DNA of 11,715 bases from a virus (lineage: Duplodnaviria; Heunggongvirae; Uroviricota; Caudoviricetes): positions 1 through 11,715 of the IMG/VR virus record IMGVR_UViG_2778261201_000003, one strand, 5' to 3'. Under the pieces are notes generated by a model, which worked only from the letters and a program-made list of their open reading frames with translations, was not told where the DNA came from and ran no database searches. The first letter of the stretch is position 1, and every line of letters begins with the position of its first letter. This document shows, piece after piece, positions 1 to 11,715 of the stretch. Made by a program: the position numbers and the translations under genes.

Positions 1-714
1 ATGTGGGTCAATAAGTATATTGACGATTGCACTGATGAGGATTTAAACGATCGTGACTTTATTGCATCAGTTGTTGACCGGGCTATTTTTCATTTCGCGA
101 TTAATAGTATATGTAATCCTGGGGATAATAAAGATGCGACTCCCATTGAACGATGTACTTTTGATGTAGAAACTAAGAATGGCCTTCCCTCCACGGTTCA
201 GCTATTTTATGAGGAATCTAAGGATAATGAACCTTTAGCGAATATACATTTTCAAGCAATAGGTTCTGGTTTTTTAACGTTTGTTAATGCCTGCCAGGAA
301 CATGATGACAACAGCTTAAAATTATTTGCTTCGCTGTTAATTTCACTTTCATATTCTAGTGCCTACACAGATTTAGCCGGAGCAGAAAAAGTGAATATTA
401 ATGAATATAATGAGAACTATCTGACAGCTCAGTTTGAAGAATTATCTCAACGTGATATGAAGAAGTACCTGGGAGAGATGAAGCATCTGGCGGACCGGGG
501 GGGGATGAAATTTGATGACTATCTGGATAAAATGTCACTTCTGGTGAATGAAGGAAAGCTCGAACCTGATATTTTAAGCAAAATGCGAGATGCTGCACCG
601 AAATTAATTGACTTTGCTAAGTCGTTTGACCCAAACTCAAAGGAAAAGATTAAAATACTTACAGATACTTCTAATTTAATTTATGATTTATTCGGGGTTA
701 AATCGGCGAAATAA
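1..714 (+). CDS. yjbM: Low-GC hypothetical protein, YjbM-like (DUF2713-type); may start upstream of the window
   Basis: 237-aa ORF ending TAA at 712-714, followed by a hairpin plus T-run at 754-783. The symbol is inferred from size (~235 aa) and position upstream of dusA in E. coli, not from recognised sequence motifs. Confidence 0.5.
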   Translation: MWVNKYIDDCTDEDLNDRDFIASVVDRAIFHFAINSICNPGDNKDATPIERCTFDVETKNGLPSTVQLFYEESKDNEPLANIHFQAIGSGFLTFVNACQEHDDNSLKLFASLLISLSYSSAYTDLAGAEKVNINEYNENYLTAQFEELSQRDMKKYLGEMKHLADRGGMKFDDYLDKMSLLVNEGKLEPDILSKMRDAAPKLIDFAKSFDPNSKEKIKILTDTSNLIYDLFGVKSAK

Positions 715-753
715 TATGTGAAGTTCTTCGATGGTATGGAAGGCATTACATAA

Positions 754-783
754 AAGAACCTAATACTTATTGGGTTCTTTTTT
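754..783 (+). terminator. Rho-independent terminator after the yjbM-like gene
   Basis: Stem AAGAACC (754-760) pairs with GGTTCTT (773-779); followed by TTTT (780-783). Confidence 0.5.
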
Positions 784-1064
784 CTTCTATCAGTGCCATT
801 AGCAGGAAGAGATATCACCGGAGTTTAATGTGTGATTTTTTATTTATCGTCGAACCTGGATTGTTTATCATTGTCCTTAACAAGGCTAACGGCTAATAAG
901 ATTATTTCCATCACTTCGTGAGAGCTTCATGCCTTGATTTGATCTCAATTTTCTTTTGCAATGAGACAGGCGCTTCCTGTTGTTATGGTATAGTACCCCG
1001 CTATTGAGCCTCCTGAACAGTGATGCTGAATAACATAACCCAATGATATATCGATAAAATAATC

Positions 1065-1187
1065 TCTACATTTGAAAATGCACGGTAATTCTGAAATGCA
1101 AAAAATCAACCAAACCAGCGCAATGCCTGAAAAAACTGACGTTCACTGGAGTGGTCGGTTTAGCGTTGCACCAATGCTCGATAGGAT
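1065..1187 (+). repeat. attL-side copy of the dusA 5' region (native chromosomal version)
   Basis: About 81% identical over ~110 bp to 10302-10411 (21 mismatches by hand alignment); identical blocks include ATGCCTGAAAAAACTG and ATGCTCGA; similarity stops after ~1187. Confidence 0.65.
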
Positions 1188-1200
1188 GTACCGTTTTTGA
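1078..1200 (+). pseudogene. dusA: Displaced 5' fragment of native dusA (40 codons then TGA)
   Basis: Translates to MHGNSEMQKINQTSAMPEKTDVHWSGRFSVAPMLD then diverges (RMYRF*); parallels the N-terminus of the intact dusA at 10302. Confidence 0.6.
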
Positions 1201-1325
1201 AAAACAAGTAGTTATACACTTTGTGGGAGCCTATTGGGAACCCGGTGTTTTCATTTCAAGGTGTAATCCATGCCGGGCATCAGAATGAGATATAATGAGA
1301 TTTTTAGTGTTCCGCTTGAGAGTCT

Positions 1326-1862
1326 ATGATGCTTACCCTAGACGAGATAGGTCAATCTGTACGTAACAATATCCAGTTGATTATTGATCATGTCGGCTTA
1401 CCTCTTGCTGTTGGTCCGCTCAGTGATGATGATTACAAGATTCTGTGTGGTGGCTATGGTGAGCTTGAATGGGACTATGCGTTAAGCACCTATGGCAACT
1501 CCAGAGAAAAGTATGAGTTCTGCATAAAACTTGTTCAGCAAGGTCGGGTTCAGGGAATACCATCAGGAGCAGCAATTTGTGTTTATGGGGTTGAAGAAAA
1601 CATCTTTCGTATCCATATGATCGAAAGGTTTTCTAGAGAAGATGAATCTCACCCATTGAAAGGGCGCATGGTTTTACTCACTCTTATGAGTGCTTTTATA
1701 TTTTGTAAAGCTGTTGAATGTAAAGTTGTCCACATTGTAGAGCCAGTACCAGAACTGGTGCAGTATTACGAGTCTTTTGGTTTCCGCATGGAACAGTGCG
1801 GTTATGTGATGTCTGCAGTCATTGATGAGCTGCAGGATATCTTTCTTAAATTTGCTCAGTAG
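1326..1862 (+). CDS. Hypothetical cargo protein, possibly a GNAT-fold acetyltransferase
   Basis: 178-aa ORF; C-terminal segment KVVHIVEPVPELVQYYESFGF resembles the GNAT beta-strand/helix/YxxxGF pattern; no canonical Q/RxxGxG/A motif seen, so function is tentative. Confidence 0.5.
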   Translation: MMLTLDEIGQSVRNNIQLIIDHVGLPLAVGPLSDDDYKILCGGYGELEWDYALSTYGNSREKYEFCIKLVQQGRVQGIPSGAAICVYGVEENIFRIHMIERFSREDESHPLKGRMVLLTLMSAFIFCKAVECKVVHIVEPVPELVQYYESFGFRMEQCGYVMSAVIDELQDIFLKFAQ

Positions 1863-2058
1863 GTATAGACGAGAAGGGTCTACAAATTGTAGGATACCCG
1901 TCCAGATTACCTTAAAGGTACATCTATGGCAGTCGTTTTGTGCTTAAACTACTAAGAAACGATGTCACCAATCGACATGATCGATTGGCATAAGTTAGCG
2001 AAACAAGCTAGCTTTAAAGAGAGGGTTAGAGGCGCCTTTACTGTCTCGGGAGTTTTCT

Positions 2059-2232
2059 ATGAAAGATCAAAAAGCAACCAAGCCACAGGTTAAGTTCGAC
2101 ACAATGAAAGCATTCGCAGGTATGGGTGCTGCTGTTGAAGTTCTGATGAAGGCTGCTCCTAATGCGTTCACTCACGCTACTGTCTCTGGTAAAGAGCAGC
2201 AGGGTAAGCTTCGTCGTCGCAAAGCAGCATGA
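2059..2232 (+). CDS. Small basic hypothetical protein (57 aa)
   Basis: ATG at 2059 preceded by GGGAG (2048-2052); ends TGA 2230-2232; followed by a strong intrinsic terminator; not in the ORF track because it is under 60 aa. Confidence 0.5.
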   Translation: MKDQKATKPQVKFDTMKAFAGMGAAVEVLMKAAPNAFTHATVSGKEQQGKLRRRKAA

Positions 2233-2252
2233 TCATAGCTGGTGCTTTTTGA

Positions 2253-2278
2253 AAACCCGCCTTTAGGCGGGTTTTTTC
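2253..2278. terminator. Bidirectional Rho-independent terminator
   Basis: AAACCCGCC (2253-2261), loop TTTA, GGCGGGTTT (2266-2274), then T-run; A-run upstream gives a U-tract on the minus strand too. Ends the plus small ORF and the minus-strand operon. Confidence 0.75.
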
Positions 2279-2279
2279 T

Positions 2280-2561
2280 TTAGTGATGTTCTTTGCCCTT
2301 CTGTTTGCTTGTTCTGACCTGTTCCCACTCGATACGTCCTTCTTCTCGTCTTTTGTCTATGTATTCCGCAAGATCCTGAATATTGATGCAACGTTTTGCT
2401 TTTTGTGATGTGCCGATGCGATATGTTGGAACGGGCAACTTACAAGCGTTTGCTTTTGCTTCTGCCGTGGCTGGACTCATGCCAAAGTACTTTTGGCTAA
2501 CTGCTGAGAGTTCAATGTTAGGGGTATTGAATTCAGCCATCAGTAAAAACAAGGTGTTCAT
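2280..2561 (-). CDS. PrtN/AlpA-like small DNA-binding protein (possible regulator or excision factor)
   Basis: Start chosen at ATG 2561 (MNTLFLLMAEF...) with GGAG 7 nt upstream; the MNTLFLL N-terminus resembles PrtN-family proteins as I recall them. Confidence 0.55.
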   Translation of the reverse strand: MNTLFLLMAEFNTPNIELSAVSQKYFGMSPATAEAKANACKLPVPTYRIGTSQKAKRCINIQDLAEYIDKRREEGRIEWEQVRTSKQKGKEHH

Positions 2562-2597
2562 AATTTTCTCCATCAAAACCGGCTGCACCCGGGAAAA

Positions 2598-3170
2598 TCA
2601 TAATTCTGTGCTGGTGGCAGGAATTAATTTCTGCCAGATAGCGGAAACATATTTTGCCTGATGACGAGCATCAGCCAGGGCGTTGTGCCGTTCGCCATCG
2701 AAAGGCATGTCCATTTTTGGGTCGAATCCGATGGAACGCCCAAGCGTAACGATCGTGCGCGCATCGTGATCATTCCAGTACGCCCATGGGCAGATTTGTC
2801 CTGCTCGCTCATAAGCTCCGCGTAAAATTACGTTGTCGAAGTTGGCTCCGTTACCCCAGACTTTTAAATATTTCGTATTGTCTGCGTGCCGATTAATGAA
2901 ATGGCTCAGTTCAGAGAGTGCATCGCTGATCGACAAAGTATCATCAATACAGATTGCAGCTCGTGCTTCAGGGCTTTGTTTCAACCACCACAGGATGGTG
3001 TCGCCGTCAGGTGTGGCCCCTTGCTCCATAGCACTGTCCAAGCTGACAGCCGTATAGAATTCTTGTCCGATGTCTCCGGTTTCTGGGGTGAAGAACACTG
3101 CGCCAATAGAAACGATCGGCGCATCCTTATTTTTCCCCATCGTCTCAAGGTCGATCATTAAGTTGTTCAT
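2598..3170 (-). CDS. DEDDh-type 3'-5' exonuclease (DnaQ-like fold)
   Basis: Motifs MIDLETMG (Exo I), WGNGANFD (Exo II) and HNALADA (Exo III); start ATG at 3170 overlaps the upstream stop (ATGA) with GGAGG upstream. Confidence 0.8.
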   Translation of the reverse strand: MNNLMIDLETMGKNKDAPIVSIGAVFFTPETGDIGQEFYTAVSLDSAMEQGATPDGDTILWWLKQSPEARAAICIDDTLSISDALSELSHFINRHADNTKYLKVWGNGANFDNVILRGAYERAGQICPWAYWNDHDARTIVTLGRSIGFDPKMDMPFDGERHNALADARHQAKYVSAIWQKLIPATSTEL

Positions 3171-3451
3171 CACTTTACCTCCTGCGGCGGTTCTTGTATT
3201 GGCATCGGCTGAGCTATATATAGCGGCTGAACATACCAGCCCTTTGATAACCAACTGTCAGCAACGTTTTTACTTCTGGTTATTGCCGGAATACCTAAGC
3301 CATTGTCTGAATGCAGCCATGCCACCGGATCCTCTTCCAGCGATGCCAGAGCAATTTCATAAGCACGGCGCTCAACATTGTCTCGCACGTCCATGCTGCT
3401 GATTCGTTCTTTGATTTCTTTAATCAGTTCTTTATCGGTAAATGTGGTCAT
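3170..3451 (-). CDS. Hypothetical phage protein (93 aa)
   Basis: ORF translationally coupled on both sides (TAATG overlap at 3451, ATGA at 3170); GGAG upstream. Confidence 0.6.
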   Translation of the reverse strand: MTTFTDKELIKEIKERISSMDVRDNVERRAYEIALASLEEDPVAWLHSDNGLGIPAITRSKNVADSWLSKGWYVQPLYIAQPMPIQEPPQEVK

Positions 3452-3813
3452 TATGCTCCAGCCTCCGGTGCTTTTGGCATTACAGCCCAGTGAGTGATAT
3501 TGACGTTTTCAAGGTCCCCGACCTGAAATGTCCACTGCCATTCTCCGGTTTCTTTTTGCCCCCATGTATACCAGAGAGAACGCCAGCCAATCAGCCAGCC
3601 TTCTCCATTAGCATCAAATAACAGAATACTTTCGTTCGCTGGCGGCAGTTCAGCTGACACTGGTATTACTTTGTTTTCCAGTGCTGCACATTTAGCTTCA
3701 AGCGCATCAAATTTACGCACCAGGTACTCAGCATTTGTTTCGTTCACTTTCAGATCTCGCGGTACACATTTCCCGCGAAGAAACCCTTCCATTTCGAAAA
3801 CATTCATGCGCAT
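3451..3813 (-). CDS. DUF551-like phage protein
   Basis: 120-aa ORF with Trp-rich C-terminal region (DANGEGWLIGW...W...W) typical of DUF551 proteins in lambdoid early regions; overlaps the upstream gene end by 10 nt. Confidence 0.6.
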   Translation of the reverse strand: MRMNVFEMEGFLRGKCVPRDLKVNETNAEYLVRKFDALEAKCAALENKVIPVSAELPPANESILLFDANGEGWLIGWRSLWYTWGQKETGEWQWTFQVGDLENVNITHWAVMPKAPEAGA

Positions 3814-4340
3814 TTGCGTAACTCCGATAACTCGTTAAAACGTTCCATAAACATCCCATAGGCATGGCCTGGCGACAGTGGAATAACTTTGAACATCTCT
3901 GTTGCCGGGATACCTTCCAGTACAGGCCAGAAAGAGCCATCATCAAGCCCGAGATCGCGGCGTTCGGTTGCCAGCATGATGAGATCGGCATATTTCACGG
4001 GCGTACTCATAACCGGGGGTAACCCGTATTTCTCACGGATTACGGCGTCTATTTTTTCTTCCATCCGTTTATAGTCAGGAAGAAGGCGTTTCAGTGGTGC
4101 GGGAATGTCCTGGCAATACGCTTCTGTTGCATCATGCATTAACGCTTCAAAAGCAAATTCGTGCGGTACCAGCTGGCTGCAAAGCACCGCATGTTGGGCG
4201 ACGCTGTAGAAGTGTGAAAGATGTCCTGCAAAGCGACAGATATTTGAAAGGGAAACCGCGATATCGTTAATAACGATGTCATCTTTATTTATCCTGTCAT
4301 AATAAAAATGCTTCCCGGAAAAAGTTTTAATAAATGACAT
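3804..4340 (-). CDS. HD-domain phosphohydrolase, YfdR-like (5'-deoxynucleotidase family)
   Basis: Start at ATG 4340 (MSFIKTFSGK...) with GGAG 8 nt upstream, giving 178 aa; H...HD metal-binding pattern (AGHLSH, MHDATEAY); resembles E. coli CPS-53 YfdR as recalled. Confidence 0.75.
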   Translation of the reverse strand: MSFIKTFSGKHFYYDRINKDDIVINDIAVSLSNICRFAGHLSHFYSVAQHAVLCSQLVPHEFAFEALMHDATEAYCQDIPAPLKRLLPDYKRMEEKIDAVIREKYGLPPVMSTPVKYADLIMLATERRDLGLDDGSFWPVLEGIPATEMFKVIPLSPGHAYGMFMERFNELSELRKCA

Positions 4341-4429
4341 TTTGTTCTCCACGTATATGCGCTGCACCGCGCTGAATTTTGATTGCAGCAATCCAGCCCA
4401 TTTGACATGGGATGATTGCTGCAATTTTT

Positions 4430-5347
4430 TTAAGTTGTTGGATTTTGGCTTTTATCTTCTTTGTAAGAAAGAAGGTCACACATCAAATTAACTACCTTGC
4501 TGAATTGGAAAAGGTCAGTGCCAGTCTGATGACGCCACTGGAATGCTTTATCATCTTCATCATTAAATGTCTGAGATTGAGTATTGATGCGCGAAAAATG
4601 GAAATTTTCGGTAAGAATGAAGGTCACACCGCAACCGGATAACTCCATTTTATCAGCAGTGAAACTACTACTAAGGCTATCGGCCAGTTCGCTTTGAATT
4701 GACTCATGCTCAGCTGAGTAGCGAATAATTTCCTTTTGATCTGCGTAGCGTGATAGCTGAATATAATTCCCGACAGTGAATCCTTCAAATGCATTGGCTG
4801 CACCATTGATGTAGTTCTTCAGGCGTGTAGTCAGTCCATTCTTGATATCACTGATGTTGATTGTTTCTGTTTTCACTGAACCGACAACCTTAATCAGCAT
4901 TGCGCATACCATACCGGCTATTATTTTATTGGTTGTGTTGATTACCAATAATTTCTCATCAGTGCTGTACAATGCAAGAATCAGCGTAGACTTAACAAAT
5001 GCCTGTTTGCATAGATCTACTCGTACGTTATCAATAATGGCCAGTCGTTCGGCACGCTTTAATTTATTCCCGGACATATTTTCGATTGTTTGGATTCGAG
5101 AATTAGCTTCTTTCATGACGACATGTCGGGGAATTATTTTCTGATCATGACGGATTACCATTGCGTACCCACCAGATATCGGAGTTACCAGTTCACCAGT
5201 GACAGGATTCTCTACAAAAGAGGACCGTGAAAATTCTGTTTCCCCGATTTCAGAATAAGGGAGTTCGAGAAGATGCCCTTCAATAGCCTGTATACTAGGT
5301 AATGTTGCTCGGTACACAATTGCGTTACGAAATTTTGGTAATTTCAT
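4430..5347 (-). CDS. RdgC-like recombination-associated protein
   Basis: Start at ATG 5347 (MKLPKFRNAIVYR...) with GAGGAAAA RBS, 305 aa; N-terminal FRN..VYR and KIIPRHVV segments parallel E. coli RdgC. The open frame extending to 5497 is GC-rich non-coding read-through. Confidence 0.7.
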   Translation of the reverse strand: MKLPKFRNAIVYRATLPSIQAIEGHLLELPYSEIGETEFSRSSFVENPVTGELVTPISGGYAMVIRHDQKIIPRHVVMKEANSRIQTIENMSGNKLKRAERLAIIDNVRVDLCKQAFVKSTLILALYSTDEKLLVINTTNKIIAGMVCAMLIKVVGSVKTETINISDIKNGLTTRLKNYINGAANAFEGFTVGNYIQLSRYADQKEIIRYSAEHESIQSELADSLSSSFTADKMELSGCGVTFILTENFHFSRINTQSQTFNDEDDKAFQWRHQTGTDLFQFSKVVNLMCDLLSYKEDKSQNPTT

Positions 5348-5397
5348 TCTATTTTCCTCTGCACAAGATATTAGTTTCTCCACAAAACAGAGAAGAA

Positions 5398-5745
5398 CAC
5401 CTGCGGTGGCAGCCGCCCGGATGGATTGGGTTATGAGCCCGTCGTCCGGTGATGCTCTTCTCTGTTTTGTAAAAAGAGCGGTACCAGCCGGAAGCAAGTG
5501 TACAAACTGGTACCGCGAGGACTACACACAGCATAAAGTTGTGGTGCCGGGTGCCTCCCGGTGCCTGGCGAAGGTTGCACACCAGGCGGGTGGGTATCCA
5601 CAGAAGGTCGACTGTCAGCCTCAACCTTAACCCGCGTGCGCTGAGCCGCATTCACCACAACGCTAAGGATTCTCTCTGGTTGAAAATACTTAGCTGTTAT
5701 GTGCCTGTCTTTTCACCACTTCAGGCTCGGTGGTATCCTTTTAAG
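5398..5745. other. GC-rich, hairpin-dense non-coding element (candidate structured RNA or regulatory region)
   Basis: Four overlapping ORFs in different frames, all Arg/Pro/Gly-rich and not protein-like; perfect 10-bp inverted repeat GCGGTACCAG/CTGGTACCGC (5478-5516); further stems CCGGG/CCCGG (about 5546-5560), GCCTGG/CCAGGC (about 5564-5588) and GTGG/CCAC (about 5592-5603). Confidence 0.3.
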
Positions 5746-5770
5746 TCCGTATACATAAAAGGAAAATCAA

Positions 5771-6016
5771 ATGACTTTTGATGAAAAAGAACTTGATAAT
5801 GCAATTAATAAAATCATCGTAACGTCGCTCTTTTCCTGTCTCAGCGACACTCAGCAGAAACAGTTCTACGAATCGGCTTTCAACATGATCGAGCGTTGTT
5901 GTTTCTGCGATGCCGACGAGCTACCTGAAAAAATCAGGAAACAGTTGGCTGATGCTCTTCGAGTGCGACTTTCTGACCAATTTTCTGAAATGTACTCTCC
6001 GAATTTGGACAAATAG
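5771..6016 (+). CDS. Hypothetical small protein, reverse-oriented moron-like gene
   Basis: 81-aa ORF with AAGGAAA RBS; upstream candidate promoter (TTCACC, 16-nt spacer, extended -10 TGgTATCCT at 5712-5739); 12-bp bulged hairpin at 6026-6051 after the stop. Confidence 0.4.
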   Translation: MTFDEKELDNAINKIIVTSLFSCLSDTQQKQFYESAFNMIERCCFCDADELPEKIRKQLADALRVRLSDQFSEMYSPNLDK

Positions 6017-6209
6017 AAAAAGGCCATTTCCATTCAGGGTCTGATGGAAATACTTCAGCCTGTTCCAAAGCACGGCGTAAAGAGAATACAACTCCAGCCA
6101 TAATCTGATGTTTCCCATTGGTCCAGCTATCGCCGCTCTGATCTACAGGAGCGGCTATGTCGTATGACCAAACGACTTCACCACTATTGTTTAAAATCTG
6201 GACTTTCAT
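5934..6209 (-). CDS. Hypothetical protein (91 aa)
   Basis: ATG 6209 with GGAGG 12 nt upstream, just after the zinc-ribbon gene stop; its 3' end overlaps the plus ORF 5771-6016 by 83 bp, so one of the two may be spurious or shorter. Confidence 0.4.
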   Translation of the reverse strand: MKVQILNNSGEVVWSYDIAAPVDQSGDSWTNGKHQIMAGVVFSLRRALEQAEVFPSDPEWKWPFSICPNSESTFQKIGQKVALEEHQPTVS

Positions 6210-6217
6210 TTTGTTCT

Positions 6218-6421
6218 TTAACCTCCAGATTTCCGCGCATCTAAAGGCGCATTCTCATTTGGTGTGAACTGAATAGTTGTGCTGATATTGATTAATGCCC
6301 CGACACACAAGACTACGCACTCAGAGCAGATAGCAACTTCATCTTTTCCGCCTTTGGCGATGATTTTTTTTGCCTGCAGCTCGTTTGCGCCACAAAACGA
6401 GCATGTGAAATAACGGTTCAT
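6218..6421 (-). CDS. ClpX-type zinc-ribbon small protein
   Basis: YFTCSFCG...AICSECVVLC gives a CxxC...CxxC pattern closely resembling the ClpX N-terminal zinc-binding domain; start chosen at ATG 6421 (alternative ATG 6439 has no RBS). Confidence 0.6.
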   Translation of the reverse strand: MNRYFTCSFCGANELQAKKIIAKGGKDEVAICSECVVLCVGALINISTTIQFTPNENAPLDARKSGG

Positions 6422-6519
6422 TTGCGCTCTCTTACACATAGTATTTAACGAATCATCCGGTCATTCATACGCCACCGGCGGCTACTTCGTGGGCGTCCTG
6501 CCTGTTCGTTGTTTCGCTT

Positions 6520-6555
6520 GGGTACATTATGTATCTCAAAGGTACATTGTCAAGT
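6520..6555 (-). promoter_or_regulatory. pL-like early-left promoter with candidate repressor operators
   Basis: Minus strand -35 TTGACA (6553-6548), 16-17 nt spacer, -10 CATAAT/ATAATG (about 6531-6525); GGTACATTATGTATC (6521-6535) overlaps -10 and GGTACATTGTCAAGT (6541-6555) overlaps -35. Confidence 0.5.
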
Positions 6556-6580
6556 ATAAAAAAACCTGCCGAAGCAGGTT
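6556..6580 (-). terminator. Rho-independent terminator downstream of the cI-like gene
   Basis: On the minus strand: AACCUGC, UUCG tetraloop, GCAGGUU, then a run of 7 U. Confidence 0.65.
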
Positions 6581-6592
6581 CATAAACATTGA

Positions 6593-7267
6593 TTAGGCTT
6601 TGATTTTGTATCTTCTTGGTTTTCCTGAGAAAATCACTGTACCAATTATAGAGCAATTACCGTTGATCTTAATGTAAGGCTCAGGCCAGTTTGGGTTTAA
6701 CGCTTTGAGATAACGCTGTGTCCCATCTTCTATCAACCTTTTGAAGGTGGTTTCACCTGTATCGTGCATCAATGCAATAACGTCGTCACCGTGGCAGGCA
6801 GGGACTTCAGGATCTACAAAAATCATGTCTCCCGGGCGGTACTCATCAATCATTGAATCACCAATCACCCGCAAGATATAAGTCATTTCGCCACAGGGTA
6901 CAGGGCAGGGATAAGTTTCTGCTGTGCTCAAATCAACCTCAGAATAGCCAACTTCTTTCCATGCTCCGGCCTGTACCCATGATATGACAGGGACTAACGT
7001 TATTTGTTTGTTAGTGATTGAAACATCAGGTTTTTTTGTGATGTTCGTGGTCTGGTGTTCTTGATCAAGCCATCCGACAGGCAGGTCGAAACATTTTTCG
7101 ATGTGCCGTGCCATGCTGTCACCGATATTTTTAGTAGCACCATCTCCCATAAACCTGCTGGTCTGGGTTGGCTCGCGATCAATCATGGTGGCAAAGGAAG
7201 AATTCCCGCCAACACCATCTCTCAGTTTTCTGGCGTTAGACCGCCGGATGTCATGGACTGTTTTCAT
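6593..7267 (-). CDS. CI-like repressor with N-terminal HTH and C-terminal S24 (LexA-like) autopeptidase domain
   Basis: 224-aa ORF; candidate Ala-Gly cleavage site (VQAGAW); Ser in VIGDSM and Lys in TFKRL form the Ser/Lys dyad; divergent from the Cro-like gene. Confidence 0.85.
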   Translation of the reverse strand: MKTVHDIRRSNARKLRDGVGGNSSFATMIDREPTQTSRFMGDGATKNIGDSMARHIEKCFDLPVGWLDQEHQTTNITKKPDVSITNKQITLVPVISWVQAGAWKEVGYSEVDLSTAETYPCPVPCGEMTYILRVIGDSMIDEYRPGDMIFVDPEVPACHGDDVIALMHDTGETTFKRLIEDGTQRYLKALNPNWPEPYIKINGNCSIIGTVIFSGKPRRYKIKA

Positions 7268-7357
7268 AAAGAAATTAAAACCTTTGTACCGATAAGGTAC
7301 AAGTATCTTGAAGGTTCATGCTAATCATGTAATATGTATATCGGAGGTACATATTGT
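7268..7357. promoter_or_regulatory. Divergent cI/cro switch region with palindromic operator-like sites
   Basis: Perfect palindrome TTGTACC-gataa-GGTACAA (7284-7302); GGTACATATTGTATG (7346-7360) nearly identical to the pL-region site; candidate pR (TTGAAG 7308-7313, TAATAT 7330-7335); candidate leaderless pRM-like promoter on the minus strand (-35 TTGTAC, -10 TTTAAT ending 7 nt before the cI ATG). Confidence 0.45.
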
Positions 7358-7558
7358 ATGAAAGCGTATTGGGACTCTTTAACCAAAGAACAGCAGGGCG
7401 AGTTGGCCGGAAAAGTTGGCTCAACACCAGGCTACTTACGGCTGGTTTTCAATGGTTATAAAAAAGCCAGTTTTGTGCTGGCTAAAAAACTTGAGCAATG
7501 CACGTCAGGTGCAATTACGAAATCTGACTTAAGACCGGATATCTATCCGAAAGATTAA
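7358..7558 (+). CDS. Cro-like small HTH regulator (YdaS-like)
   Basis: 66-aa ORF from ATG 7358 with GGAGG at 7343-7347; the upstream ATG at 7334 lacks an RBS; motif GAITKSDLRPDIYP resembles Cro/YdaS-type proteins; divergent from the repressor. Confidence 0.7.
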   Translation: MKAYWDSLTKEQQGELAGKVGSTPGYLRLVFNGYKKASFVLAKKLEQCTSGAITKSDLRPDIYPKD

Positions 7559-7589
7559 CAGAACACCTTCAATTTTTAACCACAGAACG

Positions 7590-8102
7590 ATGAGGCTAAC
7601 CGTGGGTAAGCATCACTGGAAAGTAGAAAAACAGCCTGAGTGGTACGTGAAAGCTGTCAGAAAAACTATCGCGGCGTTGCCGGGGGGTTACGCTGAAGCT
7701 GCTGAGTGGCTGGATGTAACAGAGAACGCTTTATTCAACCGCCTTCGTGCAGATGGCGATCAGATTTTCCCGCTGGGATGGGCAATGATTTTACAGCGCG
7801 CGGCTGGCACTCACTACATTGCGGATGCTGTCGCACAGTCTGCTGGTGGGGTGTTTGTATCGCTTCCTGAAATTGAGGAAGTAGAGAACGCCGATATAAA
7901 CCAGCGCCTGCTGGAAGTCATCGAACAGATCGGGAGTTACTCAAAGCAGATTCGTTCGGCAATCGAAGATGGGGTATCTGATTTTCCCCTGTCCCCACAT
8001 CCCGTTTCGCTGCTTCTCCCAAACCAACCTTTCAAATATTTTTCTGAATCAGGTGATATTTCGCCTCTTCTCCTGTTTTTACAACAGGAGAAGCACTCAT
8101 GA
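7590..8102 (+). CDS. CII-like phage regulatory protein (putative, 186 CII/CP76-like)
   Basis: 170-aa ORF directly after the cro-like gene; size and position match CII of 186-type phages; real start may be GTG 7602 (GAGG RBS); stop overlaps the invertase start (ATGA). Confidence 0.5.
   Translation: MRLTVGKHHWKVEKQPEWYVKAVRKTIAALPGGYAEAAEWLDVTENALFNRLRADGDQIFPLGWAMILQRAAGTHYIADAVAQSAGGVFVSLPEIEEVENADINQRLLEVIEQIGSYSKQIRSAIEDGVSDFPLSPHPVSLLLPNQPFKYFSESGDISPLLLFLQQEKHS
8067..8093. promoter_or_regulatory. 27-bp perfect palindrome covering the invertase RBS
   Basis: CTTCTCCTGTT-tttac-AACAGGAGAAG (11-bp arms); the right arm contains the invertase Shine-Dalgarno AGGAG. Confidence 0.4.
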
Positions 8103-8662
8103 TTTACGGGTATGTTCGTGTATCAACAAATCATCAGGATACAGAGTTGCAACGTCTTGCACTTGAGTCAGCTGGCTGTGAGCGAATTTATGAAGAATAT
8201 GCCAGTGGCAGAACAGCTAATCGCCCTGTGTTAAAGGAATTAATTTCGGTGATGAAAAGTGGAGATGAGTTGATTGTCTGGAAGCTAGATCGGATAGGGA
8301 GAAATGTGCTACATGCGCTATTGATGTTTCAAAATCTGCACGAAAAAGGCGTTAATTTTCGGAGTATTACAGATGGTGTAGACCTGAAAACAGCAAGTGG
8401 TCGCTATAATTTCCGTAATATTCTTTCTGCTGCGCAGTATGAATCTGATTTGAATAGCGAGCGAACTTTAGCTGGTTTGGCTATTGCCAGATCCAAAGGC
8501 CGGATTGGTGGGCGTAGACCGAAGTTTAGCGACGAGCAGTGGCAACAGATGGGAGCGCTCATAGCGGCAGGGAAATCACGGCGTTATGTTGCACGTATCT
8601 ATAACGTTGGGCTATCAACCCTATATAAACGATTTCCTGTTACTGGCATTCAAACGAAATAA
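8099..8662 (+). CDS. Serine recombinase, Hin/Gin/Pin-family DNA invertase
   Basis: 187 aa; N-terminal MIYGYVRVSTNHQD with catalytic Ser; resolvase fold motifs (LDRIGR); C-terminal HTH (GKSRRYVARIYNVGLSTLYKR). Confidence 0.85.
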   Translation: MIYGYVRVSTNHQDTELQRLALESAGCERIYEEYASGRTANRPVLKELISVMKSGDELIVWKLDRIGRNVLHALLMFQNLHEKGVNFRSITDGVDLKTASGRYNFRNILSAAQYESDLNSERTLAGLAIARSKGRIGGRRPKFSDEQWQQMGALIAAGKSRRYVARIYNVGLSTLYKRFPVTGIQTK

Positions 8663-8702
8663 TTTAAAAGCAATTTAAAGAGTTATTTGTCTAATGTTGG
8701 AA

Positions 8703-8738
8703 GCCGCAGCCACGTCGTATGCAAGAACGTGCTGCGGC
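8703..8738. other. GC-rich hairpin in the convergent intergenic region (possible bidirectional terminator or binding site)
   Basis: GCCGCAGC(C)ACG pairs with CGTGCTGCGGC across a 13-nt loop; no clear U-tract on either strand. Confidence 0.35.
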
Positions 8739-8805
8739 TGGCTGGCGAACTTTCGATAGTGCGAGTATTGAATGATTTCCAGCCGTTACCGATTTTACGT
8801 GTTAA

Positions 8806-9054
8806 TTAGTGAACAAACCACTCGTCAGCAGATTCCCAGGTATCTTTCAGAGTCTCCTGAACAAAAGTTTTTGCAGAATCCTTATCTGCGGTGCGTGTAA
8901 CAGAAAGGCCATCGTTGCTGGTGGCTTTTACGATCACCTCTACATCGTCATAACGTTTACTGATGCGTCGGGTTAATTCTTCCTTTAACGCATCCACAGC
9001 ACCGGTTGGCATTTTAGTCATTTTTTCTTTGGCTATGCAGATTTCAATACGCAT
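8806..9054 (-). CDS. DinI-family DNA-damage-inducible protein
   Basis: 82 aa, [11 protein letters not shown]...[11 protein letters not shown] parallels E. coli DinI (MRIEVTIAK...ETWESADDWFV); two LexA boxes immediately upstream. Confidence 0.85.
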
Positions 9055-9067
9055 AAAAGTCCCTCTA

Positions 9068-9115
9068 TACTGTGTTTGTATACAGTATTATTTTTAACTG
9101 TATGGATAAACAGTG
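9068..9115 (-). promoter_or_regulatory. Two tandem LexA (SOS) boxes over the DinI-like promoter
   Basis: TACTGTGTTTGTATACAGTA (9068-9087) and AACTGTATGGATAAACAGTG (9096-9115), both CTGT-N8-ACAG; minus-strand -35 TTGACA (9119-9114) and a -10 TAAAAA-like hexamer overlap them. Confidence 0.75.
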
Positions 9116-10213
9116 TCAAGAGGTCTTATTTCTGCTCCTTTGGAGCTCTTCAAAACGATTATGTAAAGATTTCGGATACAGTTCGGTATATACCTGCCAT
9201 AGCACGTTTAATGAACGATGCCCTGTGACCTGGGCGACTTCCTCAATACTAAAACCAGCCTCAAATAAGCGACTTGCCCCTTCTCTACGCAAATCATGGT
9301 ATCGCAGATCCTTAATACCTAATTTGCTTCTTACCCTCTGAAATCCCGCAGTAACAGAAGTGCTGTTATATGGAAAAATGAATTCCGATTTTTTGGGCTG
9401 TCGTTGGACGATATCCCAGGCTTCCCCAAGCAAGGCTACTTTCATGTGGTTGCCTTCCTTTTTGCGTGGATCTTTCCTGTCTCTTACGAGTATAGATTTT
9501 TGTTCCTGGTCGAGATCTTCCCATCGTAACCGGCATACTTCTCCGATCCGCATACAGGACCACACAGAAAATTTGAGGATATCAACGAACGGAATTTTTG
9601 AGCATTTATGAGTAGATCGTTGTTGAAGGCCTTCAATGAGCATGTCCAGTTCATCAGATGCTGGTCTACGATTACGACGGTTTGATTTACCAATCAAACC
9701 AAGTTTAAGTAGATATGGGCGAGCGCTTTTCGCCGGGTTTGATGTGTAATTAATTCCGTATACAGGTTTGGCCGCATCCAGAACACTGCCAAGATAACTA
9801 ACATCGTGGCTGACTGTTGCTGGACCTGCACCAGCGTTGTTTCTTAGCCTGCAATGTTCAATTACGTCATTTTCTGTCAGTTCAGATAGTTTGATCGCGG
9901 AGATGTCACTATCCATAAGCAGTTCCAGCACATATCTTTTAGTACGGCCTGCTTTACCTCCGGCATTTGGGTCATTTAAATATTTGTGTAGTAAGTCACG
10001 GACTGTAAGTCCGTCAACTGCATTTGATGATGGAATGCCATATAGATCTAATTCCATCACTTTCTGTGTTCCCCATGTTTTGGCATGAGCATGTTTAGGG
10101 AATGTTTTGCTTTCCCTGTAAGTGATAACACCTTTTTCTTTGATAATCACATTACAGCGATAGCGTGGTGTGCCATCGGATTTTAGTCGTTTCTCTATGT
10201 TATAGTACGCCAT
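9116..10213 (-). CDS. int: Tyrosine recombinase, dusA-associated integrase
   Basis: 365 aa; C-terminal catalytic region with R...HDLR...GH...Y pattern (RYHDLRREGA, VTGHRSLNVLWQVYTELY); divergent from and adjacent to the dusA 5' end. Confidence 0.9.
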   Translation of the reverse strand: MAYYNIEKRLKSDGTPRYRCNVIIKEKGVITYRESKTFPKHAHAKTWGTQKVMELDLYGIPSSNAVDGLTVRDLLHKYLNDPNAGGKAGRTKRYVLELLMDSDISAIKLSELTENDVIEHCRLRNNAGAGPATVSHDVSYLGSVLDAAKPVYGINYTSNPAKSARPYLLKLGLIGKSNRRNRRPASDELDMLIEGLQQRSTHKCSKIPFVDILKFSVWSCMRIGEVCRLRWEDLDQEQKSILVRDRKDPRKKEGNHMKVALLGEAWDIVQRQPKKSEFIFPYNSTSVTAGFQRVRSKLGIKDLRYHDLRREGASRLFEAGFSIEEVAQVTGHRSLNVLWQVYTELYPKSLHNRFEELQRSRNKTS

Positions 10214-10232
10214 TACACGACCTCGTTATTTC

Positions 10233-10268
10233 GGGTTCCCATAAAACGTGGGAACCTGTGCGGGAACC
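10233..10268. promoter_or_regulatory. GGGAACC repeat cluster between int and dusA (candidate arm-type or promoter sites)
   Basis: GGGTTCCC (10233-10240), GGGAACC (10249-10255), GGGAACC (10262-10268); a further GGGAACC at 1236-1242 just inside attL. Confidence 0.35.
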
Positions 10269-10288
10269 TAACGCGAGAAAAATAGCCT

Positions 10289-10411
10289 GAAATGTTCAAA
10301 AATGCACGATAATCATGAAACACAAAAAATTAATCAAACCAGCGTGATGCCTGAAAAAACTGGTGTTTACTGGAATTCTCGGTTTAGCATTGCTCCTATG
10401 CTCGACTGGAC
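10289..10411 (+). repeat. attR-side copy of the dusA 5' region (island-supplied 5' end fused to native dusA)
   Basis: About 81% identical to 1065-1187; downstream of ~10406 the sequence continues as intact dusA. Confidence 0.65.
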
Positions 10412-11339
10412 GGACAGACATTGCCGCTATTTCTTGCGTCTGCTTTCCCGCAATACGTTGCTGTATACCGAAATGGTGACCACAGGGGCGATTATTCACG
10501 GTAAAGGTGATTACCTGGCGTACAGTGAAGAAGAACATCCGGTAGCGTTGCAACTCGGCGGTAGCGATCCGGCGGCGCTGGCACAGTGTGCGAAGCTGGC
10601 AGAAGCGCGTGGATATGATGAGATCAACCTGAATGTCGGCTGCCCGTCTGACCGGGTGCAGAACGGCATGTTTGGTGCGTGTCTGATGGGTAATGCGCAG
10701 CTGGTTGCCGACTGTGTGAAAGCGATGCGCGATGTGGTGTCGATTCCAGTGACGGTGAAAACGCGTATTGGCATCGATGACCAGGACAGCTATGAATTTC
10801 TCTGCGATTTCATCAACACTGTTTCCGGCAAAGGCGAGTGTGAGATGTTTATCATCCACGCACGTAAAGCCTGGCTTTCGGGGTTAAGCCCGAAAGAAAA
10901 CCGTGAAATCCCGCCGCTCGATTATCCGCGTGTGTATCAACTGAAGCGTGACTTTCCGCATCTGACAATGTCGATTAACGGTGGTATCAAGTCGCTGGAA
11001 GAGGCCAAAGCACACCTGCAACATATGGATGGCGTGATGGTCGGGCGCGAGGCGTATCAGAATCCGGGTATTCTGGCGGCGGTAGACCGGGAGATCTTTG
11101 GTTCCTCGGATACCGATGCCGATCCGGTGGCGGTAGTGCGCGCCATGTATCCGTACATTGAGCGTGAACTCAGCCAGGGGACGTATCTCGGCCATATTAC
11201 CCGGCATATGCTGGGTTTGTTCCAGGGTATTCCTGGCGCGCGGCAGTGGCGGCGTTATTTAAGTGAAAATGCCCATAAAGCGGGTGCTGACATTAACGTG
11301 CTGGAACACGCGCTCAAACTGGTGGCGGATAAGCGTTAA
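10302..11339 (+). CDS. dusA: tRNA-dihydrouridine synthase A
   Basis: 345-aa ORF recognised as E. coli DusA throughout; the first ~35 codons ([32 protein letters not shown]) differ from the displaced copy at 1078 and are island-derived. Confidence 0.95.
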
Positions 11340-11368
11340 CTTTTCACCAAAAAGTAGTCAAATTCACC

Positions 11369-11398
11369 ACGCCCTGCGCACCGTCGCGGGGCGTTTTG
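11369..11398 (+). terminator. Candidate intrinsic terminator after dusA
   Basis: ACGCCCTGCG, loop CACCGT, CGCGGGGCGT (one mismatch), followed by TTTT. Confidence 0.5.
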
Positions 11399-11419
11399 CT
11401 GTTAAATCAATAGATTATT

Positions 11420-11440
11420 TTTGGCATGATTCTTGTAATG
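11420..11440 (+). promoter_or_regulatory. Candidate sigma-54 promoter for pspG
   Basis: TGGCAT-N5-TTGTA (11422-11437) approximates the -24/-12 consensus TGGCAC-N5-TTGCA; pspG is known to be PspF/sigma-54 dependent. Confidence 0.4.
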
Positions 11441-11472
11441 CCAGCAAGAGATTTCATATTTGGGAGAGCATC

Positions 11473-11715
11473 ATGCTGGAACTACTTTTTGTGATTGGCT
11501 TTTTTGTCATGCTGATGGTCACCGGCGTTTCGTTGCTGGGCATTATCGCCGCGCTGGTTGTGGCGACGGCCATTATGTTCCTCGGCGGTATGCTGGCATT
11601 GATGATTAAGTTGCTGCCGTGGTTACTACTGGCGATTGCGGTGGTGTGGGTTATTAAGGCGATTAAAGCACCAAAAATGCCGAAATATCAGCGTTATGAC
11701 CGCTGGCGTTACTAA
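11473..11715 (+). CDS. pspG: Phage shock protein G
   Basis: 80-aa hydrophobic protein MLELLFVIGFFVML...KYQRYDRWRY; GGGAGAG RBS at 11462-11468. The 150-aa ORF from 11263 is an unsupported upstream extension overlapping dusA. Confidence 0.9.
   Translation: MLELLFVIGFFVMLMVTGVSLLGIIAALVVATAIMFLGGMLALMIKLLPWLLLAIAVVWVIKAIKAPKMPKYQRYDRWRY

Follow-up and report, generated by a model that had tools for sequence, protein, structure and literature searches.

Why would a temperate phage carry, at the head of its early-left operon, a small protein that resembles the docking domain of host ClpX? The question is raised by a minus-strand open reading frame (ORF) at positions 6218–6421 of an 11,715 nucleotide (nt) stretch of DNA, which is positions 1–11,715 of the Caudoviricetes record IMGVR_UViG_2778261201_000003 of IMG/VR; the whole stretch is termed the window here. 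The coding sequence (CDS) is 204 nt long, begins with an ATG at position 6421 and ends with a TAA at positions 6218–6220. Its translated sequence of 67 amino acids (aa) is MNRYFTCSFCGANELQAKKIIAKGGKDEVAICSECVVLCVGALINISTTIQFTPNENAPLDARKSGG. The sequence displays a ClpX-type zinc-binding domain (ZBD) and is termed the ZBD protein below.

6218..6421, minus strand: CDS of the 67 aa free-standing ClpX-type ZBD protein (Pfam, PDB, AlphaFold2, homologs, RefSeq)
6427..6433, minus strand: Shine-Dalgarno-like AAGAGAG, 5 nt 5′ of the ATG at 6421, read from the sequence

The start is assigned to position 6421 because it is preceded by AAGAGAG, the homologs begin with MN.Y and the RefSeq CDS is identical. 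The identical CDS is in E. coli UPEC 26-1, where it is annotated as WP_001083098.1 with the name "ClpX C4-type zinc finger protein". A longer ORF from an upstream ATG at 6439, present in a program-made ORF list, is without a Shine-Dalgarno sequence and was rejected; the homolog starts and the RefSeq start agree on 6421. Thus the coordinates 6218–6421 given in an initial annotation, which had been made from the DNA letters only, are exact with respect to ribosome binding site, homolog starts and RefSeq CDS.

The ZBD protein is almost certainly a homolog of the ClpX N-terminal docking domain that is without the AAA+ motor and has an immediate-early placement. The initial annotation had noted a CxxC...CxxC motif with flanking residues like those of the ClpX N-terminal zinc-binding domain, and the Pfam, PDB and fold matches bear this out. 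The domain encompasses residues ~4–51, and residues 52–67 form a tail with predicted disorder. Alignment to the Pfam profile PF06689 (zf-C4_ClpX), named beforehand as a place where the identification could fail, gives a score of 41.3 bits (E = 1.4e-10) over profile positions 2–34 of 39, where the gathering cutoff is 27. With the NCBIfam ClpX equivalog models the scores are 25.7 and 23.2 bits, far below the cutoffs of 359 and 371, and the match is confined to the N-terminal ~45 positions. The protein is therefore the docking domain alone and not a ClpX; an AAA+ ATPase module with pore loops and IGF loop is absent from the 67 aa chain.

A phmmer search of all PDB sequences returns only ClpX N-domains (2ds5, E = 2.5e-4). 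A profile built from the phage clade only also finds ClpX alone (2.1e-5), with eL43 zinc ribbons next at E > 0.2. The AlphaFold2 monomer model has a core predicted local distance difference test score (pLDDT) of 75–87, which is below 50 after residue 51, and predicts a treble-clef fold with a C-terminal helix, as in 1OVX and 2DS5. Among PDB entries, Foldseek matches this model best to crystal structures of the ClpX ZBD, 2ds5, 2ds6 and 2ds8 (target-normalised TM-score 0.79–0.83, root mean square deviation 1.4–1.7 Å, identity 36–39%, Foldseek probability 0.99–1.00). The likeness to the ClpX N-domain extends to the sequence pattern CSFCG...K-I-IA...IC-EC-V-LC, the four Cys ligands, the hydrophobic core and the residue F16. 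One source gives the protein the name Elf1-like transcription factor; this was rejected, as the Pfam match has E = 0.069 and 13.7 bits against a cutoff of 29.8.

An annotation class already exists for free-standing ClpX-type zinc-finger proteins, and RefSeq has a name for this very one. Full-text literature searches found no functional study of, or paper on, any phage ZBD protein. What is new is the invariable placement as the first early-left cistron, which is suggestive.

No intact homolog deviates at the zinc-ligand residues C7, C10, C32 and C35, arranged as CxxC-(~21)-CxxC, or at a fifth Cys, C39; only the frameshift-like homolog P0008 departs from this pattern. Ligand conservation was the other point on which the identification had been laid open to refutation in advance, and the four Cys are kept in every intact homolog. 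The core hydrophobic residues are likewise invariant across the phage clade, and its alignment with the ClpX ZBD shows that the hydrophobic helix and hairpin positions are kept. From these sequences we infer that the protein is zinc-bound and dimeric. The clade has the signature MNxYYTCSFCG..E..AKKI(I/V)AKGG(K/R)DExAICSECVVxCV..LIN.

An HMMER search of 1.84 billion representative proteins gave 154 matches at E ≤ 0.001, of which only ~15 are close relatives (E < 1e-10). The remaining matches are mostly proteins with 2–22 tandem ZBD repeats, together with some longer multidomain proteins that have ZBD copies. Many have two to four tandem repeats, and one protein of 2505 aa displays 22 matched stretches (P0016, P0018, P0024, P0030 and others).

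Between E. coli and Salmonella lineages the domain core has a proportion of nonsynonymous differences (pN) of 0.14–0.22, while the synonymous proportion (pS) is 0.7–0.88, i.e. synonymous sites are saturated. The ratio of nonsynonymous to synonymous rates (dN/dS), where computable, is 0.07–0.36. By these measures the gene is under strong purifying selection and encodes a real, constrained protein. This bears on the reading of the ORF as a non-functional remnant or a chance ORF in a decaying prophage. Such a reading could appeal to the window prophage itself, which is a remnant of ~9 kb, to frameshift-like variants in some copies (P0008, P0004) and to a few copies that are unannotated in RefSeq. 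It is nevertheless scarcely credible, given the low dN/dS with saturated synonymous sites between lineages, the invariant zinc ligands and the presence of the gene in apparently complete prophages and in sequenced phages. For the gene family as a whole the sequence comparison refutes it.

The second part of the question concerns the position of the gene, which is defined by the following features.

6593..7267, minus strand: CI-type repressor of 224 aa, YmfK-like, with a LexA-like S24 autopeptidase domain (Peptidase_S24, E = 1.5e-26; RefSeq ymfK)
6562..6581, minus strand: intrinsic terminator at the end of the cI transcript, an 8-bp stem then a T run (SfV is annotated with a terminator at the same site)
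6526..6553, minus strand: early-left promoter (pL-like), TTGACA, 16-nt spacer, CATAAT, 11 of 12 consensus matches
6510..6547, minus strand: two operator-like repeats (OL), TGTAYC-N6-GGTACA (repeat families D1 and D3)
6447..6510, minus strand: conserved structured leader RNA of ~64 nt (alignment, covariation, covariance model)
5934..6209, minus strand: second cistron, a 91 aa homolog of SfV orf33 and of YmfJ of the E. coli K-12 e14 element (phrog_3195, E = 8e-64; SfV alignment; e14 layout)

The terminator separates cI from the pL unit. The OL repeats overlap pL, and three matching copies are found in the cI/cro intergenic region at 7283–7352. The region from pL to the ATG is ~100 nt long, and the second cistron begins 8 nt past the stop codon of the ZBD gene. 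The initial annotation had called the ORF the first gene of the early-left operon; the 11 of 12 promoter match, the operator repeats and the cI terminator upstream all point to the same assignment. Since the gene is the first cistron behind a repressor-controlled pL and a conserved leader RNA, we infer that it is silent in the lysogen and that its product would be made within the first minutes after infection or induction.

The placement is constant. In 14 of 14 contexts examined, a repressor gene, a terminator, a promoter and the leader are followed by the ZBD gene as the first ORF. These contexts are the window, E. coli UPEC 26-1, T309.Ta3 and Nissle 1917, three Salmonella prophage loci (L004, L006 and L010), one Logan contig, phage 118970_sal3 and five IMG/VR contigs. 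The repressor genes, as classified by length and annotation, are of at least four kinds: the 224 aa YmfK type of the window, a 208 aa LexA-family protein, a 239 aa helix-turn-helix (HTH) regulator, and HTH_3 plus S24 proteins of 231 aa (Salmonella) and 218 aa (Logan contig). A constant partner gene was sought in the contexts of the ZBD gene and none was found; flanking genes vary on either side. The lack of a constant partner gene fits a host target.

The reading of its role that is preferred here is that the ZBD protein is a decoy for, or modulator of, substrate docking to ClpXP, with a rough probability of 0.35–0.4. Purified ClpX ZBD added in trans inhibits the RssB-dependent turnover of sigma-S by ClpXP (PMC7226468). 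The decoy idea is plausible because a free ZBD thus inhibits adaptor-dependent ClpXP degradation in vitro. The phage protein resembles the competitor of that study in being a free ZBD without the motor, but the competitor was the host's own domain in micromolar excess in vitro, whereas the phage protein is a diverged natural paralogue (PMC7226468). On the ClpX ZBD, a single hydrophobic region that includes F16 and I46 serves SspB, RssB, lambda O and trigger factor alike, and mutation of these residues abolishes the enhancement by trigger factor of lambda-O degradation by ClpXP; these residue-level roles are taken from a single paper (PMC7804408).

The steps would be as follows. Derepression of pL would yield the ZBD protein as the first early product, which would form a free dimer or a mixed dimer with the ClpX N-domain. 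It would then bind the hydrophobic peptide motifs by which ClpX docks adaptors and N-domain-dependent substrates, and the bound partners would be diverted from ClpXP, so that the set of proteins degraded early in lytic growth would be altered. Candidate targets from the published work are SspB, RssB with sigma-S, lambda-O-type initiators and trigger factor. MuA-type proteins and UmuD/D' are further candidates among ZBD-dependent ClpX substrates. The isolated ClpX ZBD was reportedly employed as a competitor by Wojtyra in 2003 and by Thibault in 2006 as well. The specific proposal that a diverged copy of the docking domain, as the very first early product, reprograms ClpXP by titration of the adaptors SspB and RssB or by mixed dimers is put forward tentatively.

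Several observations weigh against a decoy. The docking surface appears to be only partly conserved: F9, which corresponds to F16, does not vary within the phage clade, but the I46 equivalent (position 42) is variable and can be A, T, V, I, K or L. The clade also has a specific three-residue insertion in the beta-hairpin, in which AGPS-V of ClpX is replaced by AKGGKDE-A, and consistent surface substitutions relative to E. coli ClpX, i.e. Y13T, Y34A, D41V, N44V and D45G. Identity to the host ClpX ZBD is just 36–39%. Taken at the level of sequence, the substitutions, the insertion and the low identity could mean another ligand specificity. CsfB of Bacillus subtilis is moreover a ZBD-like dimer that acts on unrelated targets (PMC5890618). 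Lastly, the gene is accessory in SfV/e14-like temperate phages and dispensable for this phage type, because SfV is without it. SfV is ~97% identical on both flanks yet has a ~200-bp indel around window positions 6230–6435; the e14 element of E. coli K-12 also is without the ZBD gene.

The same differences raise the possibility, doubtful on balance, that the fold has been kept and the target changed, i.e. that a ZBD-like dimer has been turned into a small module that binds some protein, of host or phage, unrelated to ClpX. Such a protein might be a sigma factor, RNA polymerase, a cell-division protein or a component of a defence system. Besides the 36–39% identity, the hairpin insertion, the changed surface residues and the unconserved I46 equivalent, this is favored by the wider family, in which many non-ClpX proteins with 2–22 tandem ZBD repeats suggest a versatile module, and by the leader slot, which usually holds diverse small genes without an assigned function. 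The precedent is CsfB (Gin), which inhibits sigma-G and sigma-E with a ClpX-ZBD-like dimer (PMC5890618). CsfB and the phage protein are alike as small free-standing zinc treble-clef proteins, the dimer being presumed in the phage protein, and CsfB acts by protein binding. However, CsfB is only ~20% identical to the ClpX ZBD and its kinship with it is doubted (PMC5890618), whereas the phage protein, from phages of Gram-negative hosts, is an unambiguous ClpX-ZBD sequence homolog with F16 and the hydrophobic core. No constant neighbor gene points to an alternative target, and a PADLOC search for defence and anti-defence systems found nothing for the ZBD protein or its neighbors. If another target proved to be the case, a protease docking module would have been recycled as a general binding scaffold.

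The C-terminal tails suggest one more role. They are non-homologous between lineages, and total chain lengths range from 57 to 121 aa. A constant ZBD with variable extensions would suit a phage-encoded adaptor, which forms a mixed dimer with the ClpX N-domain or docks on ClpX and brings in new substrates by its tail. The hydrophobic core and the helix positions that form the ClpX ZBD dimer (described in PMC5890618) are kept, and a tail motif is common to several of the longer homologs. The adaptor role is nevertheless quite unlikely. The window protein and the 57 aa phage version have only short tails, so the tail cannot be essential; the window tail is modelled at low confidence; and some tail differences look like by-products of frameshift or recombination (P0004 versus P0001, P0012 versus P0013).

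The tail motif is found in the longer clade members P0009, P0010, P0013 and P0022 and has the form hydrophobic-x-hydrophobic-x-F-x-x-(A/S)-P. Its instances are IDITFEHSP, IDISFPDAP, LSVKFDYAP and ITVKFGDAP, and the window protein is without it. The motif could be a docking peptide.

In its logic, the proposed decoy mechanism is that of known small proteins. Phage inhibitors of host ATP-dependent proteases include lambda CIII, which acts on FtsH, and T4 PinA and T7 gp4.5, which act on Lon. The Ira proteins are RssB anti-adaptors, and the lambda CIII gene also is located in the pL operon. All are small early proteins that alter host proteolysis, a class to which the ZBD protein is proposed to belong; unlike it, none is known to copy the docking domain of the protease itself. 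The phage protein differs from ClpX in turn by the lack of the AAA+ module and of the linker, by the three-residue hairpin insertion, by the substitutions at I46, Y13, Y34, D41, N44 and D45, and by being phage-encoded under repressor control.

For enterobacteria, no phage protein that inhibits substrate docking to ClpX is known to us. If the decoy reading is correct, the ZBD protein would be, to our knowledge, the first modulator of ClpX substrate selection to be encoded by a phage, and also the first inhibitor of a protease to act as a mimic of the protease's own docking module. Its gene would then be cargo in a hypervariable slot that follows a leader RNA not described before. ClpXP controls sigma-S, tmRNA-tagged proteins and phage replication proteins. 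SOS proteins and several antitoxins also are under its control. A decoy would therefore represent a new viral way of rewiring host proteolysis in the first minutes of lytic growth, and would provide a genetically encoded tool to separate N-domain-dependent from N-domain-independent degradation by ClpXP. The proposal is directly and cheaply testable with existing assays.

The distribution of the gene shows what kind of position it occupies. A near-identical ZBD gene is found in 98 of 5426 complete E. coli genomes. Another 33 E. coli genomes have partial matches only, mostly to a diverged form (~75% nt identity), and Nissle 1917 is one of them. The slot behind the leader is occupied by the ZBD gene in five of 115 IMG/VR loci, among the matches listed. 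The first ORF behind the leader is hypervariable: at least 38 clusters were formed from the 114 copies with a predicted first ORF, out of 127 element copies in total (the IMG/VR loci among the matches listed, plus annotated loci), and some of these predicted ORFs are probably spurious. The slot looks like a cargo spot or a recombination hotspot. Because the first ORF is so variable and the ZBD gene is in so few of the listed IMG/VR loci, the gene behaves as one of many interchangeable cargo genes at the site of earliest expression, unlike a core regulator such as N.

The largest cluster of first ORFs has 29 loci among the matches listed and starts with MCFAVSQLNS.... It may be a spurious ORF that lies over a further conserved non-coding stretch (..UUAACGCGCA..).

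The initial annotation had also placed the gene in the slot of lambda N. As a position this holds, since both are the first gene downstream of pL. Beyond position the likeness ends: the ZBD protein has one Arg in its first 20 residues and no N-terminal arginine-rich motif, SfV lacks the gene, the slot is hypervariable, with no fewer than 37 different clusters of small ORFs among related phages, and the window leader has another conserved structure instead of a boxB-type hairpin. Thus an N-like regulator, in which the zinc ribbon would bind the leader RNA or RNA polymerase and control elongation or termination of early-left transcription, is very improbable. It could draw on the location of the gene, immediately behind a conserved RNA structure at the start of the pL transcript, and on the weak, sub-threshold similarity to the Pfam Elf1 zinc ribbon, a match far under its threshold. 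However, the fold search gave the ClpX ZBD and no RNA-binding protein at significance, and the leader is without the ZBD gene in 110 of 115 IMG/VR loci (among the matches listed) and in SfV, e14, ZF40, mEp237 and T5-like phages. As the leader occurs mostly without the ZBD gene, the RNA does not need the ZBD protein. We consider it more plausible, as a hypothesis, that any N-like role belongs to the leader RNA.

The leader was recognized by comparison across loci. When the promoter-to-ATG regions of the ZBD loci are aligned, ~62 nt are nearly invariant, while promoters, operators and ribosome binding site regions differ. The parts of the element are an outer helix P1, a GGC/GCC hairpin, an invariant linker CACGAAGUA, a variable 5-bp helix S2 and a possible 3-bp pseudoknot stem S1. 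One hundred distinct copies align nearly gap-free; in these, 95.1% of the cells are paired, versus 30–41% when the partners are slid. Both-sided changes are present in 11 of 17 pairs, and the covariation score is 0.495 versus at most 0.125 in the slid controls. P1 is found as GCGAA/UUCGC, CCACC/GGUGG, GUCAUC/GAUGAC and GGAAC/GUUCC, and S2 has at least eight sequence versions. An H-type pseudoknot formed by S1 and S2 is tentative, because S1 rests on one covarying pair and is missing in the e14 copy. Single-sequence folding gives z = 0.0, and the structure emerged only from the comparison.

The element is widespread. Blast searches find it in 53 phage records, and a pattern scan of IMG/VR finds at least 119 loci. 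Hosts include Escherichia, Salmonella, Shigella, Pantoea, Pectobacterium (phage ZF40), Yersinia, Klebsiella, Citrobacter and Aeromonas, and the phages include mEp237, mEp460 and T5-like Providencia phages. In ZF40 and pAEv1818 the leader separates the repressor gene from the first leftward gene; in mEp237 it precedes kil; and in PSTCR5, which is T5-like and virulent, it is intergenic, upstream of a block of co-oriented ORFs. The instances are window positions 6447–6510 (minus strand), L001, L007, L012–L015, L016–L134 and L135. A search of Rfam 15 with the leader, at the gathering threshold and at E ≤ 10, found no family, and a full-text literature search for the leader sequence gave no papers.

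Of 100 distinct upstream regions, 80% have a sigma-70 match of at least 9 of 12 positions in the 70 nt before P1, versus 6% of controls. In those with a match, the end of the -10 hexamer is 9–35 nt upstream of P1. As this distance is mostly 12–24 nt, the element would begin within ~20 nt of the 5′ end of the transcript.

The closest comparison is the put element of HK022, a phage that lacks N. It too is a structured RNA, ~65–70 nt long, and starts no more than ~20 nt from where pL transcription begins. Identity with put was rejected, as both putL and putR, read directly, differ from the leader in sequence and architecture and the covariance model of the leader finds nothing in the HK022 early region. 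Put has two long stems, whereas the leader has an outer closing helix, a hairpin and a possible pseudoknot. Put is moreover found in a second copy after pR (putR), whereas the covariance model shows one leader copy per phage early region and no second, putR-like copy downstream of pR. In the Providencia phage PSTCR5 (L015, ~1585–1593) an exact lambda-consensus boxA, CGCTCTTTA, is ~13 nt downstream of the leader, which hints at a link to Nus-dependent antitermination. Our best guess, from the placement, the lack of a constant protein partner and the lambda-consensus boxA in a T5-like phage, is that the leader is a put-like cis-acting modifier of RNA polymerase. It may thus be a new cis-acting element for early transcription in many temperate enterobacterial phages; it is judged to be at least as interesting as the ZBD protein and deserves its own follow-up.

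The window as a whole is a ~9-kb prophage remnant of the SfV/e14 type in dusA, with the following further features.

9116–10213: integrase, adjoining intact dusA
10302–11339: intact dusA
1072–1200: displaced dusA 5′ fragment
7590–8662: stretch with a cII/ymfL-like ORF that runs into a Pin-like serine invertase gene (invertase 8099–8662)

The window is collinear with the apparently complete prophage of UPEC 26-1 at the same locus, and this collinearity stops at 7976, inside the ymfL/cII-like gene. Since that ORF continues into the invertase gene, a large internal deletion or rearrangement is suggested for the window prophage.

Two minor observations concern the region downstream of the ZBD gene. 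The second cistron (5934–6209, minus strand) is convergent with an ORF at 5771–6016 on the plus strand, with an overlap of 83 nt, and each has its own PHROG (phrog_3195, 8e-64, and phrog_3311, 3e-55, respectively). RefSeq annotates only the plus-strand ORF in UPEC 26-1 and T309.Ta3, SfV has only the minus-strand ORF (orf33) and e14 has both (ymfI and ymfJ). Further along the early-left operon, positions 5469–5691 (minus strand), between the ymfJ-like gene and rdgC, match the Rfam small RNA family STnc100 (RF02076) with 49.1 bits against a gathering score of 47.

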